Source: an uncultured Candidatus Saccharibacteria bacterium (GTDB taxonomy: Bacteria; Patescibacteriota; Minisyncoccia; Phycocordibacterales; DATDWN01). From it: a stretch of 64,000 bases of DNA. The stretch lies in the NCBI GenBank assembly GCA_964596875.1, contig CAZQVT010000001.1:107255-171254 (forward strand), in the 5' to 3' direction. Below the pieces are notes generated by a model. The model had not been told where the DNA came from, ran no database searches, and worked only from the letters and a program-made list of their open reading frames with translations. How positions within the stretch are numbered: position 1 is the stretch's first letter; each line of letters begins with the position of its first letter. Below, one piece after another: positions 7,502-59,156 of this stretch. Made by a program: the position numbers and the translations under genes.

Positions 7502-7560
7502 TAATTTGACAAAATGTAATTTTATGTGCCATAATGTTTGTGGAGAGAAAGGGGCGAGAC

Positions 7561-8160
7561 ATGAACTGGTACCAGTCTGTGAGTGTGGTTCTGGCGCTGG
7601 GACTGTATGTCCCACTTGGTGTACAGATCCTTCAGGGTAAGGTCGTGCAGAACTTGGCGACCTTCATTCTGTGGGGGCTGCTCGATACCATCGCCGGCAC
7701 ATCTCTATACGTTCAGGGTGGCAACTACGGGTTGCCGTTCGCGTACGTTGCGGGGTGCACATTCATCATCGCGTGCATCCTGAAGAAGCGAACCTACAAC
7801 TGGACCAGTTTTGAAACGAAAGTATCGTTTCTGGTCCTCCTGTCCATTGTTGCCTGGATGGTCTCCGGACCCTACATGGCGACAATCTTCTCAACTACCG
7901 GCGTGGTGCTCGCGGGAGTTCCCCAGGTGAAAGATTCCTGGAGAAACCCGAAGCAGTCGCCGATGCTTCTTTACATCGGGTACGCATTCGCAAATCTACT
8001 GTCAACTATCGGCGGCAAGTCGTGGACAGTGGAGGAACGACTGTACTCGTTTGCCTGCTTTCTGCTCGTTCTGGTAGTAGTAGGCGCAACGTCGAGAAAG
8101 TACACTCTGGCATATCGTCGTATGGTGGACGATGCTCGCGAGCTGTGGAGTCTCGACTAA
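7561..8160 (+). CDS. GC-rich polytopic membrane protein, possible PQ-loop/SWEET-like transporter (two repeats, second with VPQVKDSWRNPKQ)
   Basis: About 58% GC against about 35% in flanks. RBS AAAGGGG 6 nt before ATG 7561. Hydrophobic helices throughout. Family assignment is from the motif only. Confidence 0.45.
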   Translation: MNWYQSVSVVLALGLYVPLGVQILQGKVVQNLATFILWGLLDTIAGTSLYVQGGNYGLPFAYVAGCTFIIACILKKRTYNWTSFETKVSFLVLLSIVAWMVSGPYMATIFSTTGVVLAGVPQVKDSWRNPKQSPMLLYIGYAFANLLSTIGGKSWTVEERLYSFACFLLVLVVVGATSRKYTLAYRRMVDDARELWSLD

Positions 8161-25114: not shown

Positions 25115-25612
25115 TCATTCCATACATCTGCGGTGTATGGTCCGGATTGAAAAGAACCACAATAGTCCAGTCGTTAGTGTTCCCACCAGGACCGAAACCA
25201 TTTTGGGCCAGCCCAGTTTCCACCAAATGTGCACGCCGTCGTGGATGTGTGCATACGCGGGTAGGAAATCGGGCTGAGGCAGGAACCTAAACTTTCCCCA
25301 GACCTGTACTAGGTCCGGTAGTAGCCCAGCAATGAGGCAGAGTGCCAGCAGGACTCGGTAGTCGGGAAGCCTGCGTCCGACTCGATACGTAACCCATGTC
25401 GACAGAGAGATGTCGCCGAGTGCCCACCAGAAGCCAAGCGAAATCGGGCTGGTGTAGTTATCTCCAGCAACGAGCCCAGGTTCGAGATGGGGGATTAGGT
25501 CAAGTGGTAGATGTGCCACAAGGACCAGGATTGGAAGCCAGACTAGTGCCGTTCTGGGTTTGGTCTTAATCCCTAGGGCGATTGCTGGCAGTATGTGCGC
25601 GCTCGGTAGCAT
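25115..25612 (-). CDS. GC-rich polytopic membrane protein, YdjM/DUF457-like (second, foreign-composition paralog)
   Basis: About 60% GC. VAHLPLDLIPH motif. Hairpin CCGCTGGAgacgaagttcgtTCCAGCGG downstream at about 25062-25089. Confidence 0.4.
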   Translation of the reverse strand: MLPSAHILPAIALGIKTKPRTALVWLPILVLVAHLPLDLIPHLEPGLVAGDNYTSPISLGFWWALGDISLSTWVTYRVGRRLPDYRVLLALCLIAGLLPDLVQVWGKFRFLPQPDFLPAYAHIHDGVHIWWKLGWPKMVSVLVGTLTTGLLWFFSIRTIHRRCME

Positions 25613-26089: not shown

Positions 26090-26596
26090 TTACTTCCTTT
26101 CCCACGGCTGGCGCTCTGCCAGCCTGTTGATCACCTCGATCAAGTTCCTCCGGTTGGCGCGCTCGTTCAGCAGTCCGAGTCGGTGGATCTGCTGATACTG
26201 CCAGATGACCTCCTCGACGGGAGCGCGGTACTCCTGCTTCACGACGTAGAGGCCGAGGTCTTCCGGAATGGTCTTGTCACCTTCGATCACGCTGTGCCCG
26301 TTCAGGACGTACTTGTGGTCCAGGTCGGGGTTCGCAGCGAACCAGCGGTACTCGGTCAGTTGTTCCTCCGAGACGTTCGGGAAGTTGCGCCTGGCCGACA
26401 TGAGTTCGGCCAAGATGAGCGCGTAGTCCCTGTTGTCGAGCTTGACCTCGTCGAGAACGAGCATCGGGTACGGCTCCGTGTGGGTGCTGTTGTTCCGAAT
26501 CGTGATGATTCGGTCTCGGGTAGCCTGAGCTTCCGAGCAGCCCGACACGACGACGATAAGGAAGAGAGCGGTTGCGACACGGGTGAAAGTGTCCAT
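26090..26596 (-). CDS. GC-rich lipoprotein (signal peptide MDTFTRVATALFLIVVVSGC, lipobox VSGC), unknown function
   Basis: About 58% GC. RBS AGGAGG 3 nt before ATG 26596. The ORF track allows an upstream start at 26638. Confidence 0.5.
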   Translation of the reverse strand: MDTFTRVATALFLIVVVSGCSEAQATRDRIITIRNNSTHTEPYPMLVLDEVKLDNRDYALILAELMSARRNFPNVSEEQLTEYRWFAANPDLDHKYVLNGHSVIEGDKTIPEDLGLYVVKQEYRAPVEEVIWQYQQIHRLGLLNERANRRNLIEVINRLAERQPWERK

Positions 26597-26733
26597 ATGC
26601 CTCCTAGGCAGTGGGTTGTCCATATATAATAGTATCATAAATAAGTAATATTGTCAAATATAAATATGTATTGTGCCGTAGTAAACTATGTTAAAATTAT
26701 TCCATTAATATTAATCATTTTTAATTCAAACAT

Positions 26734-43694: not shown

Positions 43695-44453
43695 ATGAGA
43701 TTGCTGATGCTTGTTCTTTTGGTCGCGTTGGCAGTCTTGCCTACCGAGACCAAAGAACAGAGAAAGTCACGACCCGCCTTGAGTGGTTGGGTTGTGGTTC
43801 TGGATCCAGGCCACGGTGGCGTTGATCCCGGTTCGTCCGGGACATTCAATGGCAAACGTGTGGTCGAGGATGAATACGTCTACGACGTAGCTCTTCGTGC
43901 CAAAAGGATTATCCGCTCAATGGGCGGACTATCCTTCCTGACGATCCAGGACAAAGTCGGCGAAAGATCATTGCCGGCACAATCAGTGTTTCCGGACGTT
44001 CGTTCGGAAACCTACACAGGAACATCTGTGGCTGTCCGTGCTGGTTCCGATGGTCTTAATCGTCGGCTTGCTTATGGCAACAGTATTAGCCGTAAGTATC
44101 CAAAGCATAGACAGGCTTGGATATCCATTCACTTCGATGTCCTCGGCAAAAACCGAGTCATCGAGGGGGTTCGGATCATCAAGGCAGAGTCGAGCAACAG
44201 GCTGGCGGATGCTCTCGAAGCGTCCTTTGCAAAGTACGACCGTTTGCGCGACTACGCGCCGGTTGTACAAAGCGGAGACCCGCAGTTTGGGATGCGCAAC
44301 CTGTTCATCCTGAATGGCAACAACAGGATTCGTGAAAAGGTGCTTGTTGAGTTGGGAAACTTCAACAACACAACAGACGTGTGGAGGGTTCGTAACTCCG
44401 TCACGCGTGAAGCGTACGCAAGAGCGATCGCAGAAGCCTTGCTACGCTGGTAA
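43695..44453 (+). CDS. N-acetylmuramoyl-L-alanine amidase (Amidase_3 family), secreted, GC-rich
   Basis: Signal peptide. VVLDPGHGGVDPG, ISIHFD and VLVELGNFNN (LVExGFxSN-like) motifs. About 58% GC. Confidence 0.75.
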   Translation: MRLLMLVLLVALAVLPTETKEQRKSRPALSGWVVVLDPGHGGVDPGSSGTFNGKRVVEDEYVYDVALRAKRIIRSMGGLSFLTIQDKVGERSLPAQSVFPDVRSETYTGTSVAVRAGSDGLNRRLAYGNSISRKYPKHRQAWISIHFDVLGKNRVIEGVRIIKAESSNRLADALEASFAKYDRLRDYAPVVQSGDPQFGMRNLFILNGNNRIREKVLVELGNFNNTTDVWRVRNSVTREAYARAIAEALLRW

Positions 44454-51067: not shown

Positions 51068-51097
51068 TTGACAGTGATGAAAAATGTGTGCTATAGT
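51068..51097 (+). promoter_or_regulatory. sigma70 promoter TTGACA-18-TATAGT
   Basis: Upstream of a structured leader (CAACCTACC..GGTAGGTTG) and ORF 51161. Confidence 0.5.
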
Positions 51098-51160
51098 TTT
51101 GAGTGGACAACCTACCGCATGTGCAGTCGCACAAGGCTTCGGGTAGGTTGCGAGGGGATT

Positions 51161-51286
51161 ATGCTCGAGAGTTTCAGACTCGTTTTTGAGGGCGTGGTTC
51201 AGTATCTTCCACCCCCTCAGGTTCTCATCGGATGTCTCATCGCGGGTGAAATGGTTCGTGACCTGCATGACCATTTCGTACGGTAA
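51161..51286 (+). CDS. GC-rich micro-ORF (41 aa, MLESFRLVFEGVVQYLPPPQVLIGCLIAGEMVRDLHDHFVR)
   Basis: RBS GAGGGG 3 nt before the ATG. Terminator CCCCGTG..CACGGGGTTTTT at 51311-51353. Confidence 0.35.
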   Translation: MLESFRLVFEGVVQYLPPPQVLIGCLIAGEMVRDLHDHFVR

Positions 51287-51359
51287 CCTCCGCACGAACA
51301 ACAACATCGGCCCCGTGGGTGTGTGCAATGCGCGCACGCTCACGGGGTTTTTCGTATAC

Positions 51360-51388
51360 TTGACAGAATAGGGTTATATGGTGTATAA
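51360..51388 (+). promoter_or_regulatory. consensus sigma70 promoter TTGACA-17-TATAAT
   Basis: TTGACAgaatagggttatatggtgTATAAT. Followed by a 5' UTR with hairpins CAGTGGTAA..TTACCACTG and CTTGCatatcGCAAG. Confidence 0.6.
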
Positions 51389-51451
51389 TAATGGCAGGAC
51401 AGTGGTAAACTCTTGCATATCGCAAGGTGTTACCACTGCCGGGAGAACACC

Positions 51452-51559
51452 ATGTTCACACCCTTCGAACTCACGTTGACCCTCACGATCTTCGTCGGTC
51501 TCGGCGTCGTCCAGGCGCTCGCCAGGCGCGACCTCGTTCTGTCCATCCGGAAGCGCTAG
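51452..51559 (+). CDS. 35-aa hydrophobic peptide (MFTPFELTLTLTIFVGLGVVQALARRDLVLSIRKR), type I toxin-like
   Basis: Single TM helix plus basic C-terminus. Structured 5' UTR, RBS GGGAG, and terminator GAGCCTCTACGC..GCGTAGAGGCTC plus T-run at 51580-51620. Confidence 0.4.
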   Translation: MFTPFELTLTLTIFVGLGVVQALARRDLVLSIRKR

Positions 51560-51665
51560 ACGCACCTCCGGCCCACATCGAGCCTCTACGCACAACATCG
51601 CGTAGAGGCTCATCTTTTTTATATGATATTTAAAAAAAACAAATAAAATGATATATTAGGAAAAT

Positions 51666-52757: not shown

Positions 52758-55493
52758 ATGGAAAATCCTACTAACCAGCGCTTTGCTACACCAGAAGCTG
52801 AAATTGCTTACTTGCGAGAGCAGATTTCTAACAAAGAAAAAATTCTTCGCGAAACAAACCCAAACTTAAACAGTGAAGAAGTTGTAAAAGAAGAAATAGA
52901 AAAATACAAAAATGCTTTGTCGCACGAAGTTTTGGACGAAACCTTGCAACTTTCAAAAGTAGACATGGAGTCTATTGTTTTAAACCTAGAACCAGAGACT
53001 CATGATAACAAAATAGAGGAACTTTTAAGTATTTTAAATACAAAAGGCATCAAAAACGCGATGTCTGTTTTGGCAGAAATGAAAGACCCGCACTTAGAAG
53101 ACGATTTTCATAGGTTTTTAGTGCAATATATAAAACATGGCTATGAGGCAAAAGGTGTAAGTATTTCTGTAGATGAGTTTCGTGGACTAGATATGACTTT
53201 GTTTGAGGTTGTTTTGCCAGAAGAAGCAGGGGAACATAATAAAAAGCCACTAAAGGAACTTGTTTCTAGTATGGAACAGTTTTTGGCCGGAATGCTGTCA
53301 GTTGTAAATGAAAACGGCACAAGAGACTACTCTAAAAACTATATTGTACTTGAAATAGCAAACCCAAACGGTAGTGACCAGTTTGTTTTCTATGTTGCAG
53401 TGCCAAACTCGTATAGACAACTTTTTGAAAAACAGATCATTTCTGTATTTCACAATGCAGTTCTAAACGAGGCAGTGTGTGACTACAATATTTTCAATAC
53501 TGACGGTGTTTCTGTCGGTTCTGTTCTAGAGGCAACCGTAAATCCCATCTACCAGTTTAAAACCTACGAGAGTTTTGACCACGACCCAATGAACGTTATC
53601 TTAAACTCTTTTTCTAAAATCCAAAAAGAAGGTGAGGGCGCGGGTATCCAAATAGTTTTTGCTCCAAAAGACGACTATTTCCTGAAAAATTATAAATACG
53701 CTATAGAACAAATAGAAAATGGTGAAAAAGTAAAAGACGCTATATATCTTCCAGAAACAATTGCCGGAAGTTTTGGTAAAGGTCTAAAGTCTTTGTTCAA
53801 AGCGTCTCCAAAAGAAGAAGAAAAAAAACCAGTAGATACAGAAGCGATAGATAAGATTAAAAAGAAAATGAGTAGTGTGATAGTGGCTACAAACATTCGT
53901 CTTATCGCTTCTGCAAAAACCAGACTAGAAGCTGAAAAGATTTTGCAAACACTAGAGTCTAGTTTCAACCAGTTTTCTGACCCTAGTGCAAACGGCTTGA
54001 AAGCAAAAAGACTAGACAAAGCAAGTTTGGAAAAAATGTTTAGAAACTATTCTTTTCGAAGTTATAACCACAACGAACTTTTACCTCTAAACCTTCATGA
54101 GGTTACTTCGCTGTACCACTTCCAAAACAATGGACTTTCACCTACGCCACAACTAAAACAAACACAGGCTGTTTCTGCTCCTGCTCCTGCAGAAATGACT
54201 GCAGGCGGAACACTTTTGGGAACGAACACATATAGAAACACTGACACCGCAATATATATAAAAGACAACGACCGTTTGAGACATACATATACTATTGGTC
54301 AGACAGGTACAGGTAAAACAACCTTGCTTGTAAATATGATCATGCAGGACATAAACCAGGGAAATGGTTGCTGTTTTATCGACCCACACGGAAGTGATGT
54401 ACAAAATATTCTTTCAAATATTCCAAAAGATAGAATAAAAGACGTGATTTATTTTGATCCAAGTTATACAGAAAGACCGATGGCACTAAACATGCTGGAG
54501 TATGATAGAAGTCATCCTGAACAAAAAACTTTTGTGGTAAACGAGTTGTTTAGTATCTTCCAAAAACTATATGGAGGCGTGCCAGAGTCTTTGGGGCCAA
54601 TGTTCGAGCAATACTTTAGAAACGCAACAATGCTTGTGATAGAAGACCCAGACACAGGATGCACTTTGCTTGATGTTTCCAGAGTTATGACAAACAAAGC
54701 CTTTCGAGATATGAAAGTAGCCAACTGTAAAAACCCAGTAGTTGTTCAGTTCTGGAAAGAAATAGCTGAAAAAGCAGGCGGTGAAGCAAGTTTGGCAAAC
54801 ATTGTTCCATATATTACTTCAAAGTTTGATGTATTTTTGGCAAACGATATTATGCGACCTATAGTAGCGCAAGAAAAATCTTCTTTTGATTTCCGAAAGA
54901 TAATGGATGAAAAGAAAATACTTCTTGTAAACCTTTCAAAGGGAAGATTGGGGGACATAAACGCCAACCTTATCGGTCTTATACTTGTAGGTAAAATACT
55001 TATGGCTGCACTTTCTCGTGTGGACAAACTTGGCACAGAAGACTTGCCTCCTTTCTATCTATATATAGACGAGTTTCAAAATATTACGACAAACTCTATT
55101 TCAACTATTCTTTCTGAGGCAAGAAAATATAAACTTTCTTTAAATATTGCGCACCAGTTTATCGCCCAACTTCAACAGGAAATAAAAGATGCTGTGTTTG
55201 GAAATGTTGGTTCAATGTTTGTGTATCGTGTGGGTGCAGAAGATGCGGAGTTTCTAGAAAAACAGTTCTCGCCTGTGTTTACTGCAAAAGATATTATGAA
55301 TATCGACAACTATAATTTTTATACAAAAATGTTGGTAGATGGAAAAACAGTAAAAGCGTTCAATGTAAAAGCAAACCCAGCACCAAAAGGAAACCCTGGT
55401 GTAGTAGAAAACTTAAAACAACTTTCATATCTTACATACGGAGGGGATAGAGCAAAAATAGAAGAAGAGATACTGGCGAAATATAAAAAATAA
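52758..55493 (+). CDS. large P-loop ATPase, TraG/TraD/VirD4-like type IV secretion coupling-protein family (DUF87-like), orphan
   Basis: Walker A IGQTGTGKTT, DPHGS, Walker B LYIDEFQN. 911 aa with a long N-terminal soluble domain. No other T4SS genes in the window. Confidence 0.55.
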   Translation: MENPTNQRFATPEAEIAYLREQISNKEKILRETNPNLNSEEVVKEEIEKYKNALSHEVLDETLQLSKVDMESIVLNLEPETHDNKIEELLSILNTKGIKNAMSVLAEMKDPHLEDDFHRFLVQYIKHGYEAKGVSISVDEFRGLDMTLFEVVLPEEAGEHNKKPLKELVSSMEQFLAGMLSVVNENGTRDYSKNYIVLEIANPNGSDQFVFYVAVPNSYRQLFEKQIISVFHNAVLNEAVCDYNIFNTDGVSVGSVLEATVNPIYQFKTYESFDHDPMNVILNSFSKIQKEGEGAGIQIVFAPKDDYFLKNYKYAIEQIENGEKVKDAIYLPETIAGSFGKGLKSLFKASPKEEEKKPVDTEAIDKIKKKMSSVIVATNIRLIASAKTRLEAEKILQTLESSFNQFSDPSANGLKAKRLDKASLEKMFRNYSFRSYNHNELLPLNLHEVTSLYHFQNNGLSPTPQLKQTQAVSAPAPAEMTAGGTLLGTNTYRNTDTAIYIKDNDRLRHTYTIGQTGTGKTTLLVNMIMQDINQGNGCCFIDPHGSDVQNILSNIPKDRIKDVIYFDPSYTERPMALNMLEYDRSHPEQKTFVVNELFSIFQKLYGGVPESLGPMFEQYFRNATMLVIEDPDTGCTLLDVSRVMTNKAFRDMKVANCKNPVVVQFWKEIAEKAGGEASLANIVPYITSKFDVFLANDIMRPIVAQEKSSFDFRKIMDEKKILLVNLSKGRLGDINANLIGLILVGKILMAALSRVDKLGTEDLPPFYLYIDEFQNITTNSISTILSEARKYKLSLNIAHQFIAQLQQEIKDAVFGNVGSMFVYRVGAEDAEFLEKQFSPVFTAKDIMNIDNYNFYTKMLVDGKTVKAFNVKANPAPKGNPGVVENLKQLSYLTYGGDRAKIEEEILAKYKK

Positions 55494-55543
55494 ATTATGG
55501 GCCGATCGTGGCGTTCGACCAGCCCATAAACCGCAGGTTTGCA

Positions 55544-55750
55544 TTAGGCACCTCGAGCTTTCTTCAGAAGTTCGAGTCGGAGTCCTCTCGCGATTTCTCT
55601 CACATCCATCCTGATCCTTTCGTTCTCCTCGGTGTCGAGGGAGTTTCTGCGGAACGCTTCCTCGAAGATTTCACCGAGCAGGTTTGGGTTCGCTCCGCGT
55701 CTTATGAACTCTCTGTTCACTTCGCGAGCGATTTTTTCGGCGAGACTCAT
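55544..55750 (-). CDS. GC-rich small helical protein (68 aa)
   Basis: RBS AAGGAGG 5 nt before ATG 55750. About 60% GC. Second gene of a two-gene minus-strand cassette. Confidence 0.4.
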   Translation of the reverse strand: MSLAEKIAREVNREFIRRGANPNLLGEIFEEAFRRNSLDTEENERIRMDVREIARGLRLELLKKARGA

Positions 55751-55842
55751 AGGCACCTCCTTTCCGACATTATTATCGCACAATTTTTTGCATTGAAATA
55801 GGGGCGCGCCTTTCGACGTGCCCCCAGTTCGGCGAGGAGGAA

Positions 55843-55959
55843 CTAGTCCTTGTCGCCGTTCGGTAGCCCCCGGTAGTCGAGTCGGGGATCGGTCTTGCGA
55901 CCTTTCCACTTCACTGCAAACGAGGACTTCTTCACCTTACCTTCATTTTTCTTGGCCAT
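55843..55959 (-). CDS. GC-rich Lys-rich micro-protein (38 aa, MAKKNEGKVKKSSFAVKWKGRKTDPRLDYRGLPNGDKD)
   Basis: RBS AAAGGAGG 8 nt upstream. The segment ...KGRKTDPRLDYRGL has faint bL33-like character. Confidence 0.35.
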   Translation of the reverse strand: MAKKNEGKVKKSSFAVKWKGRKTDPRLDYRGLPNGDKD

Positions 55960-55983
55960 GATGTTGGCCTCCTTTCATTTATT

Positions 55984-56013
55984 ATTATACTACAATAACA
56001 CCTGAAGTGTCAA
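55984..56013 (-). promoter_or_regulatory. consensus sigma70 promoter TTGACA-18-TATAAT on the minus strand
   Basis: Minus strand reads TTGACActtcaggtgttattgtagTATAAT, driving the 38-aa and 68-aa ORFs. Confidence 0.55.
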
Positions 56014-56016
56014 GTG

Positions 56017-56529
56017 TTATGCGATTAGTTGGTCTACAACACGCTTAACAATGTCTCCGTCCGCTTTTCCTTTCAAATCCTTCATAAGTGTTCCCATAAA
56101 CATCCCTGCTTTAGATTTATCTATACTTCCTGCCTCTGCTAGTTTTATTTTTGCGAAAGCCCTCACGTCTTCCTCGGACATCATCTGTGGTAGGTATGCT
56201 TCAAGTACTTTTAGTTCAGCCTGTTCACTTTCAGCTAGTTCTGGTCGGCCACCTTTTGTAAACTGGTCAATAGAATCTTTTCTTTGTTTTACTGCTCGTC
56301 TGATAACATTTAGCACCTCTTCATCAGAAAGTGCATCCTGAGGCATTCTCTTTAGTGCCACAAGTTCGTTTGTAAAACCTGCTACTAGGCCTTTTACTAC
56401 GCCTAGTTTAACTTGGTCTTTTGCTAACATTGCTTCTTTAATTTGCCCTTTGATTGTTTCTTGTAGTGTCATATAAGTAAAGATTACCACAGGCCAGATA
56501 TTTTTGGTAGAATACTGTGATGGAACCAA
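56017..56529 (-). CDS. GatB/YqeY-domain protein
   Basis: LQETIKGQIKEAMLAKDQVKLGVVKGL, a YqeY signature. Confidence 0.75.
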   Translation of the reverse strand: MVPSQYSTKNIWPVVIFTYMTLQETIKGQIKEAMLAKDQVKLGVVKGLVAGFTNELVALKRMPQDALSDEEVLNVIRRAVKQRKDSIDQFTKGGRPELAESEQAELKVLEAYLPQMMSEEDVRAFAKIKLAEAGSIDKSKAGMFMGTLMKDLKGKADGDIVKRVVDQLIA

Positions 56530-57936: not shown

Positions 57937-57965
57937 AATGACCTCCGAAAGGAGGTTGTTTTTGT
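57937..57965. terminator. bidirectional terminator AAAATGACCTCCGAAAGGAGGTTGTTTTTG
   Basis: Perfect hairpin with A-run 5' and T-run 3'. Confidence 0.75.
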
Positions 57966-58540
57966 ATAAGGAAAAGGGCTAGGATCGAATGGTCACGTGG
58001 GGTGTGCGTAGAGACCAAGGATACCTAGCCCTTCTGCCGACTTGGGTCGGCTTCAGTTGAAACAGTATAAAGAGCGAGACCGGTAAGACCGATCTGGAGG
58101 GAAAACACGTTCCTCCACGTTGATGCGTGTATTTCACGCACCCCCGAAATCGAGCCTCCACATACTGGCCGCCAACCTATCGCCCTCACTAGGGTCGGGT
58201 TGGACATCATCCAGTCTCGCGTATTAACCAACATTTGTAATGCAGGCAAATACTCGAGACCGGCTTCTGTATGGAACTATAGCACAAATAAAAAATATTT
58301 CAACCATTAGAAAACGGTCGCCAGGCGACCGTCGTAGGTGGTTCCGTAGGAGTGTCGCAGTGTACAAACCGAAAGACAGTTCGGTTTGAATCCTTTTCTG
58401 TGCCACCAGAATGGTATATATCCTCGACGCAACATTCAAACCGTTACAGACTGGGTCGGGAGTCCCCAAGTGTGGAATCGGTGAAGGGCATCTAGAGAAT
58501 CTACACACGGCAGACCTAACTGAACCATTTCACATACTAT
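57966..58540. ncRNA. GC-rich structured region without credible ORF, candidate ncRNA(s); class and strand unresolved
   Basis: About 57% GC between rplU and recR. Stems GGGCTAGG..CCTAGCCC, GGAGGgaaaacacgttCCTCC, TGCGTGtatttcaCGCA, GTCGCCagGCGAC and AAACCGAAagacagTTCGGTTT. Internal minus-strand promoter-like TTGAAA-16-TATAGT (about 58270-58305). Confidence 0.35.
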
Positions 58541-58544
58541 ATTA

Positions 58545-59156
58545 TTAGTTTCTGTTTTTCAAGGCGTTTTTTATAGTGTCGCTGTCAGAGTATTCCAGTT
58601 CGGTTCCGGTAGAAAGTCCTCTGCCAAGAGTTGAGATTTTAATATTATTTTTAGTTGTAACATCTTTTAGAAATTCAGTTAGGTAGTTTACAGTGTTTTC
58701 TCCTTCAGGGTTGTAGTTTAATGCTAAAATAATTTCATTTAGTCCTGTTGAGACTTTTGTTTGTATGGTTTGAAGTAAATCTTTTTGTCTTATTCTATTT
58801 TCAGGATTTTTTTCAAGTATTGGGACAGTGCCACCTAGTATAAAATAATAGCCGTTATAAAACTTTGTTTTTTCTATATTTTCATAATCCACATCATGGG
58901 AAACTATCATAAGTTGTTTTGGGTCCCGGTTAGTGTCTCTACAAACTGGACAAAGAGTATTTGTGCTGTTTGGAAAAAACCTAAAACAACTTGTGCACGA
59001 ATGTACTGTGGATCGAACCTCTTTTATTAACCCAGCAAGGTCGGTTGCATACCCCGGGTTTTTGTTCAGTAAAAAGTACACAAAACGTTTTGCTTGTCGT
59101 GGTCCGATTCCAGGAAACTCCTTAAAGAGTTCTATGAGTCGTTCAGTGTTGTTCAT
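58545..59156 (-). CDS. recR: recombination protein RecR
   Basis: Zn finger CTSCFRF..CPVCRD and Toprim domain. 203 aa. Confidence 0.9.
   Translation of the reverse strand: MNNTERLIELFKEFPGIGPRQAKRFVYFLLNKNPGYATDLAGLIKEVRSTVHSCTSCFRFFPNSTNTLCPVCRDTNRDPKQLMIVSHDVDYENIEKTKFYNGYYFILGGTVPILEKNPENRIRQKDLLQTIQTKVSTGLNEIILALNYNPEGENTVNYLTEFLKDVTTKNNIKISTLGRGLSTGTELEYSDSDTIKNALKNRN

Follow-up and report, generated by a model that had tools for sequence, protein, structure and literature searches.

Two probable small basic protein genes with conserved expression signals and fast-diversifying products in a lineage-specific slot between yqeY and a VirD4-like gene of an uncultured Patescibacteria bacterium

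A 64-kb stretch of contig CAZQVT010000001.1 from an uncultured Candidatus Saccharibacteria bacterium, analysed as a whole and referred to below as the window, carries on its minus strand a GC-rich cassette of two small open reading frames (ORFs), ORF1 and ORF2, located between yqeY and a convergent gene for a VirD4/TraG-like ATPase. A preliminary description of this cassette had proposed that a single consensus promoter drives a basic micro-protein together with an acidic, helical partner. The present analysis indicates that the two ORFs are probably genuine and mutually independent genes for small basic proteins, which are strongly signalled, diversify rapidly and occupy a slot used for lineage-specific small genes. 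The same cassette was found at the same yqeY/VirD4-like site in at least five related lineages. The alignments comprised seven sequences, namely the window itself (WIN) and the loci L081, L092, L090, L093, L088 and L084, among which only five lineages are independent of each other.

The first gene is preceded by the promoter P1, TTGACA-18 nt-(gtag)TATAAT (55984..56013, minus strand), which matches the consensus at 12 of 12 positions, as had been claimed. Its hexamers are found at 56013-56008 (TTGACA) and 55989-55984 (TATAAT), and the window contains two exact copies of this arrangement, with 0.00 expected from 100 shuffles. In L081, L092, L090 and L093 both hexamers are unchanged and the spacer is variable. 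The 5' leader that follows (AAAUGAAAGGAGGCCA; 55960..55980, minus strand) is nearly invariant in all lineages covering it and contains a ribosome-binding site, AAAGGAGG at 55975-55968, separated by 8 nucleotides (nt) from the ATG at 55959, with a mini-hairpin GGCC...AUGGCC straddling the start codon. ORF1 (55843..55959, minus strand) encodes a Lys/Arg-rich peptide of 38 amino acids (aa), MAKKNEGKVKKSSFAVKWKGRKTDPRLDYRGLPNGDKD, with an isoelectric point (pI) of 10.2, a net charge of +7 and a grand average of hydropathy (GRAVY) of -1.53; the last two values do not fit a type I toxin, a hydrophobic membrane-spanning peptide. The ORF1 counterparts in relatives (P0012, P0013) are 44-45 aa long, start at the same ribosome-binding site and ATG, and have in common with it the residues MA..K.K..FA.(K/R)(W/Y).G..LP..D. 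Because five of five lineages retain the ribosome-binding site, begin with ATG-GCC and have an open frame that terminates within the same hairpin, because ORF1 was predicted by gene callers in three datasets, and because close pairs showed 10 synonymous versus 4 non-synonymous changes where about 24% synonymous changes are expected under neutrality (binomial p=2e-4), ORF1 is considered to be protein-coding, with weaker support than ORF2. Its AlphaFold2 model is partly helical and of low confidence (pLDDT 58.6), and the peptide is probably disordered.

The second gene, ORF2 with its ribosome-binding site (55544..55762, minus strand; AAGGAGG at 55762-55756, 5 nt, ATG at 55750), encodes a protein of 68 aa. 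The acidic character attributed to this partner was not borne out, since its pI is 9.7 and its net charge +2; pI ranges from 9.7 to 10.7 and net charge from +2 to +4 in the family, the C-termini are Arg/Lys-rich, and the products of both ORFs are basic and hydrophilic. Searching 1.84 billion representatives exhaustively with HMMER retrieved homologs of 68 aa (51% identity, E 7e-12) and 75 aa (41% identity, E 5e-7), and a profile search recovered eight clusters, all without a name and without Pfam domains. In the comparison of the window with L081, 18-19 synonymous codon changes were counted in frame versus 3-10 in the other five frames, with zero stops, and across pairs 18-28 in-frame synonymous changes were observed versus 1-10 in four of the five other frames. 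The fifth, the antisense frame with the wobble position in common, has 26 synonymous changes in one pair but is interrupted by stop codons. Antisense ORFs were discarded, since near-equal synonymous counts are expected from a common wobble position and these frames contain stops or have no conserved start or ribosome-binding site. Between L090 and L088, 28 synonymous and 15 non-synonymous changes were found, corresponding to proportions of synonymous (pS) and non-synonymous (pN) differences of 0.66 and 0.12, respectively. The AlphaFold2 model, built from a nine-sequence alignment, is a three-helix bundle with helices at residues 3-17, 22-36 and 41-67 (pLDDT 86.8). On account of the homologs, the in-frame synonymous excess without stops and this confident model, ORF2 is judged to be protein-coding. 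The preliminary description had made its reading depend on homologs with a conserved frame, and these exist for ORF2, at 51% and 41% identity, and for ORF1 in the form of the 44-45-aa counterparts.

Downstream of ORF2, an intrinsic terminator, T2 (55485..55529, minus strand), with a 14-pair stem at 55529-55495 and a T-run, directly adjoins the stop codon of the convergent VirD4-like gene; its stem is kept in all lineages, with variation in loop and stem. The elements originally listed for the cassette, namely two small ORFs of 38 and 68 aa each with a ribosome-binding site and ATG, an internal hairpin and a strong terminator, are all present on the minus strand, and its GC-richness was reproduced (0.49-0.56 in 200-nt windows versus 0.396 for the window).

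Between the two ORFs lie 92 nt in which two hairpins and an extended -10 box are conserved. The first hairpin (55831..55857, minus strand), predicted in four of four folded lineages, places the ORF1 stop codon UAG in its apical loop. Its stem is GGCGA/UCGCC in the window versus GCACGA/UCGUGC or CACGACA/UGUCGUG in L090 and L088, compensatory changes that were read from the sequences, and it co-varies although the 5' arm is also coding sequence for the C-terminal residues of ORF1. A similar arrangement, with the stop codon inside a hairpin, was seen by eye in genes of another small-gene family (family A, below) in L001 and L004. Directly downstream of the stop-codon hairpin lies the hairpin T1, GGGGGCACGUCG-AAAG-GCGCGCCCC followed by UAUUUC (55795..55825, minus strand, with the hairpin itself at 55825-55801), which was recognised by folding and conservation; together, the twin hairpins reach z values of -4.7 to -6.3. 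The 3' half of T1 and the CCCTATTTC that follows it are invariant in the seven sequences. T1 was missed by the terminator scan on account of its short T-run; it is probably a leaky terminator or a stabiliser acting at the 3' end or in processing. Farther downstream, a conserved A6T2-4 tract precedes the extended -10 box TGnGATAAT (55772..55780, minus strand), the candidate promoter P2, which is invariant in WIN, L081, L092, L090, L093, L088 and L084, and -10-like boxes of their own are also found at the ORF2-family genes of L001, L002 and L013. We infer that this box serves as a second promoter for ORF2. Thus, of the original claim that one promoter drives both genes, the perfect promoter stood, but the conserved extended -10 box between the ORFs means that a single promoter is not the sole reading. 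An anti-Shine-Dalgarno motif UUCCUCC after the ORF1 stop, which might pair with the ORF2 ribosome-binding site, was dropped because it is absent in L081 and L092.

The conservation of these signals stands against the divergence of the proteins. When yqeY and the 200 C-terminal codons of the VirD4-like gene were taken as flanks and compared among WIN, L081 and L090, protein identities of 92-98% were obtained, with a non-synonymous distance (dN) of 0.02-0.07 and pS of 0.46-0.65, whereas in the same comparisons protein identity was 19-53% for ORF1 and 24-51% for ORF2, with dN of 0.4-1.3. The two ORFs diverge 10-40 times faster than the neighbouring genes. Over the full length, nucleotide identity was 62-85% in the signal-bearing non-coding segments versus 52-66% in the ORFs, with most non-coding differences located in the promoter spacer and the hairpin loops. 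The P1 hexamers, the leader, the 3' half of T1 with CCCTATTTC, the A6T2-4 tract, TGnGATAAT, both ribosome-binding sites and the T2 stem are invariant or nearly so.

Additionally, the histories of the cassette and of its surroundings disagree. ORF2 falls into two types (WIN/L081/L092/L084 and L090/L093/L088), and its grouping of WIN with L081 versus L090 with L088 conflicts with that of the flanks, in which L081 goes with L090 versus WIN. Likewise, the allele types of ORF1 and ORF2 do not co-vary, since the ORF1 type is common to L081 and L090 and the ORF2 type to WIN and L081. Between L081 and L092, flank pS is 0.37 on both sides, compared with 0.06 for ORF1, 0.13 for ORF2 and 99% identity in the spacer (Fisher p=2e-6). 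A general constraint on the synonymous sites of ORF2 is not seen (pS of 0.66 between L090 and L088 versus a flank value of 0.62), so the simplest reading of this pair is that recombination has recently exchanged either the cassette or its flanks. Altogether, it was demonstrated by these comparisons that both ORFs are under purifying selection within an allele type and extremely divergent between types, while the expression signals and flanking genes are conserved, and that the cassette and the flanks have partly different histories, which points to recombination.

The two adjacent small genes on the same strand, one short and basic and the other helical, with a perfect promoter upstream and a strong terminator downstream, resemble a type II toxin-antitoxin system, one of the pairings originally suggested for the cassette. 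In an obligate pair of this kind, both genes would be co-transcribed from P1 and one product would neutralise the other; the ORF1-then-ORF2 order is in fact kept in the five closest lineages, and the short U-tract of T1 makes read-through plausible. Such a pair is nevertheless unlikely, since the genes carry separate signals, with the structured 92-nt spacer, its two conserved hairpins and the conserved -10 box between them, both proteins are basic, no toxin-antitoxin or defence domain was matched by either of them in Pfam, NCBIfam or PADLOC at E<=1, and their allele types assort independently. The slot in other relatives argues in the same direction. There, ORF2-family genes stand first or second beside unrelated small genes, in either order, their partners being members of family A in L001, L008 and L019 and of family C in L002 and L013, and slot-A genes stand alone in L003, L004 and L009. 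At least three further small-gene families share the syntenic slot in relatives, in varied combinations and orders, and the co-occurrence analysis proposed in the preliminary description went against a fixed pair. From this we infer that ORF1 and ORF2 are independent of each other.

Family A (L001, L004, L005, L008, L019, L038 and L079) occupies the P1-driven slot downstream of yqeY; its members carry the N-terminal motif PDxVRxAxLxGD..L...GxKGA, often end in GERDDD or ANEHICPV(G)D(D), and have no Pfam match. A third slot family, with the pattern ...EAGY...AHAK.R, is present in L002 and L006, and in L013 by eye only. The possibility that ORF1 is a truncated member of family A was rejected (hhalign probability 0.1%), the likeness being limited to a P1-type leader and an acidic G-D-K-D end.

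The succession of ORF1, stop-codon hairpin, terminator-like hairpin and ORF2 is also that expected if ORF1 were a regulatory leader peptide, an upstream ORF whose translation sets the level of transcription or translation of ORF2 through the stop-codon hairpin and T1, and this would accord with an ORF1 sequence that is poorly conserved between types next to RNA hairpins conserved with compensatory changes. We regard such a leader as quite improbable, however, because ORF1 is under purifying selection within a type, T1 starts 17-20 nt past the stop codon, probably beyond the reach of a terminating ribosome, and T1 is followed by a conserved -10 box. Moreover, no conserved antiterminator pairing was seen on inspecting the sequences, of which no exhaustive search was made, and in L001, L008 and L019 ORF2-family genes with promoters of their own precede the P1-driven gene.

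A structured non-coding or dual-function RNA in which the ORFs are incidental is very unlikely. It could draw on a GC content of 51-56% in a genome of about 40% GC, on the location of the best-conserved parts in non-coding blocks, and on the folding of the whole 491-nt unit, which is better than that of shuffles (z -4.2), as is that of the ORF1 part with its 3' hairpins (z -3.5). This signal comes from the hairpins, however, since the ORF2 coding region alone shows no excess structure against shuffles (z -0.58), on which ground a structured RNA body was rejected. Furthermore, the substitutions track the codon frame, the ribosome-binding sites and start codons are conserved, the ORF2 protein model is confident, and neither Rfam covariance models, at the gathering score or at E<=10, nor ARAGORN, for tRNA and tmRNA, returned a match in the region.

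The composition of the cassette raises the question of its origin. The GC content at third codon positions (GC3) is 0.69-0.72 in ORF1 and 0.59 in ORF2, with 0.43-0.73 in relatives, against 0.21-0.36 in the 42 core genes of at least 150 codons in the window. An insertion of recently acquired foreign DNA, such as a moron from a phage or plasmid, between the two flanking genes could account for this difference, and self-contained units each with a promoter and a terminator, together with a cassette less diverged than its flanks in one pair, could be read in the same way. A recent acquisition is, all the same, highly improbable: the cassette is old, given that its location is the same across lineages with 37-74% of synonymous sites differing in the flanks, and no integrase, repeats or tRNA were found at its borders. 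In addition, tblastn against 50,697 phage and 72,556 plasmid records found no counterpart, PHROGs gave no match, and further GC3-rich genes with consensus promoters occur at scattered places in the window, which looks like a resident gene class. The high GC3 itself is old, because it is kept across lineages with near-saturated synonymous sites. Codon bias in the style of ribosomal genes was rejected as its cause, given that the GC3 of rplU is only 0.32, and gene conversion in a recombining locus is a possibility.

That ORF1 is a divergent ribosomal or ribosome-associated micro-protein resembling bL33 (PF00471), with ORF2 as another ribosome-associated factor, is scarcely credible, since its small size, Lys/Arg-richness and strong signals, a short by-eye likeness, without statistical support, to bL33 (FA.K..GRKTDP.L.Y), and the neighbourhood of yqeY and rpsU in Firmicutes are set against a hypervariable product of 38-45 aa with no Zn-ribbon/beta-hairpin pattern, which differs by 47-81% between lineages whose housekeeping neighbours differ by 2-8%, unlike a ribosomal component, and for which the 38-mer and the 45-aa homolog matched 0 Pfam families (Ribosomal_L33 included) and 0 PDB chains (ribosomal proteins included) at E<=10, and against an ORF2 without a fold match to ribosomal proteins, so that neither the ribosome-associated pairing nor the bL33-like segment of the preliminary description was sustained.

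The searches for known families were otherwise equally negative. In Pfam, NCBIfam, PHROGs and PADLOC, nothing significant was found for ORF1, ORF2 or the slot genes of relatives. The best match of the single-sequence and profile searches of PDB was a designed helical protein (E 0.028), taken as chance, and the ORF2 fold search of PDB and BFVD gave no significant match, the best viral one having E 2.1 and the VbhA antitoxin E 5.0. The ORF1 and ORF2 families were not found in a full-text search of the literature.

Among general classes, the cassette comes close to orphan, strongly expressed bacterial small proteins whose genes carry stabilising hairpins at the 5' and 3' ends. It shares with them the monocistronic layout, consensus promoter, very strong ribosome-binding site, terminal hairpins and homologs confined to a narrow clade, but differs in that two genes here, and at least three further families in relatives, share one syntenic slot, and in a GC3 twice that of the host genome. 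Polymorphic loci with allelic types and conserved flanks, such as the Bacillus comQXP pherotype locus and the Streptococcus comC alleles, offer a second comparison. As in those loci, short coding segments form types that differ deeply from each other and vary little internally, the locus shows signs of recombination, and the variable segments are set among conserved flanking genes and expression signals. Unlike them, the cassette has no signal peptide, processing enzyme or receptor gene, and its products are basic, hydrophilic and cytoplasmic-looking; with five lineages sampled here, balancing selection is a possibility only.

If the two genes are independent, as favoured here, P1 and the strong ribosome-binding site of the first gene would drive a disordered, polycationic 38-aa peptide from a messenger ending in the twin hairpins, one around the stop codon and the other terminator-like. 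The second gene, with its own strong ribosome-binding site, would be transcribed from the putative P2, possibly also by read-through from P1, to give the 68-aa three-helix-bundle protein, and its transcript would end at the strong terminator T2. As for function, it is tentatively suggested that the products are abundant small binding factors, with ORF1 acting as a polycation on nucleic acid or ribosomes and ORF2 as a helical adaptor or nucleic-acid binder, and that fast-changing partners drive their diversification; the rapid change of such partners could stem from conflict with phages or a host, or from strain specificity. A broader proposal, and a rather doubtful one, is that the whole gap between yqeY and the VirD4-like gene is a recombining polymorphic locus in which diversifying or frequency-dependent selection maintains discrete allele types of abundant small basic proteins; these would act at the interface of the episymbionts with their hosts or phages and might be handled by the adjacent coupling ATPase, and the doubled GC3 would result from frequent gene conversion. 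The link to the ATPase consists of the adjacency of the convergent genes and the Arg/Lys-rich ORF2 C-termini, and it may be plain gene order.

Several observations weigh against the favoured account. ORF1 is barely alignable between types (19-32% identity), so the homology of the 38-mer with the 44-45-mers consists of position and a few residues. The candidate P2 is an extended -10 box with a poor -35 that was not called by the promoter scan, and this conserved block may be an RNA-level element instead. The allele types and recombination rest on few comparisons, given the five independent lineages, and the distant pairs approach saturation at synonymous sites. Finally, the GC3 excess (0.59-0.72 versus 0.21-0.36) is not explained by this account, and no family, fold or context match names a partner for either protein.

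The gene directly upstream of the cassette on the same strand is yqeY (Pfam YqeY, 1.9e-37), whose nearest relatives among 185,579 species genomes all belong to Patescibacteria metagenome-assembled genomes of the Paceibacteria/Parcubacteria type. As listed, the yqeY ORF begins at an upstream TTG, has 170 aa and overlaps the start of the divergent rmuC (56466-56529/56517-56529); since yqeY in relatives begins with MTLQETIKG and has 151 aa, its true start is probably the ATG at 56472. The convergent neighbour (52758-55493) encodes a 911-aa protein similar to the coupling proteins of type IV secretion systems (VirD4-like), with T4SS-DNA_transf, TraG-D_C and TrwB domains. The region following yqeY in these relatives is frequently rich in GC and begins with a consensus promoter (at most one mismatch) in 21 of 78 loci, compared with 7 of 365 control windows; after it come one or two ORFs, 38-90 codons long, every one of which has a ribosome-binding site and usually also a terminator.

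Other GC-rich units were observed elsewhere in the window. The GC3 of long ORFs is bimodal, with four genes at 0.57-0.81 (7534-8157, 25118-25612, 26093-26638 and 43695-44450) that encode a membrane protein, two unknowns and an Amidase_3 cell-wall hydrolase, and near-consensus sigma-70 promoters at 7506 and 43625 lie just upstream of two of them. The gap between rplU and recR holds a gene-free, GC-rich segment (58298-58545), probably on the minus strand, which is a candidate structured small RNA: a promoter-like site (58562..58534) and a terminator (58320..58301), both on the minus strand, would yield a transcript of about 225 nt. This unit is conserved in L002 and L090, and RNAalifold predicted 61 pairs, 16 of them with compensatory changes, from the three sequences; it has no Rfam match at E<=10, and folding does not settle its strand. 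The rest of the gap (57960-58275) is GC-rich and contains no convincing ORF, but has on the minus strand a promoter-like site with TG (58303..58276) and a terminator-like hairpin (58095..58077); in the fetched loci, this part was not conserved according to nhmmer. On the plus strand, 51068-51290 and 51360-51560 carry near-perfect or perfect TTGACA-18-TATA(G/A)T promoters. Downstream of each promoter come a long 5' hairpin and a short ORF, and the ORF at the second site codes for the hydrophobic 35-aa peptide MFTPFELTLTLTIFVGLGVVQALARRDLVLSIRKR; additional small-gene units in the style of the cassette, or else type-I-toxin-like peptides, may be present here.

Patescibacteria genomes are small, most of their genes are uncharacterised, and the dealings of these bacteria with hosts and phages are largely unknown. 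Against this background, the near-perfect and strongly conserved expression signals of the cassette suggest heavy use, and its two ORFs appear to have been exchanged between lineages. At the least, the cassette is a well-documented pair of lineage-specific hypothetical genes. If the present account is confirmed, two new small-protein families would be added, and the cassette would provide a compact and easily tracked locus for the study of conflict-driven small-protein evolution in an uncultured phylum.

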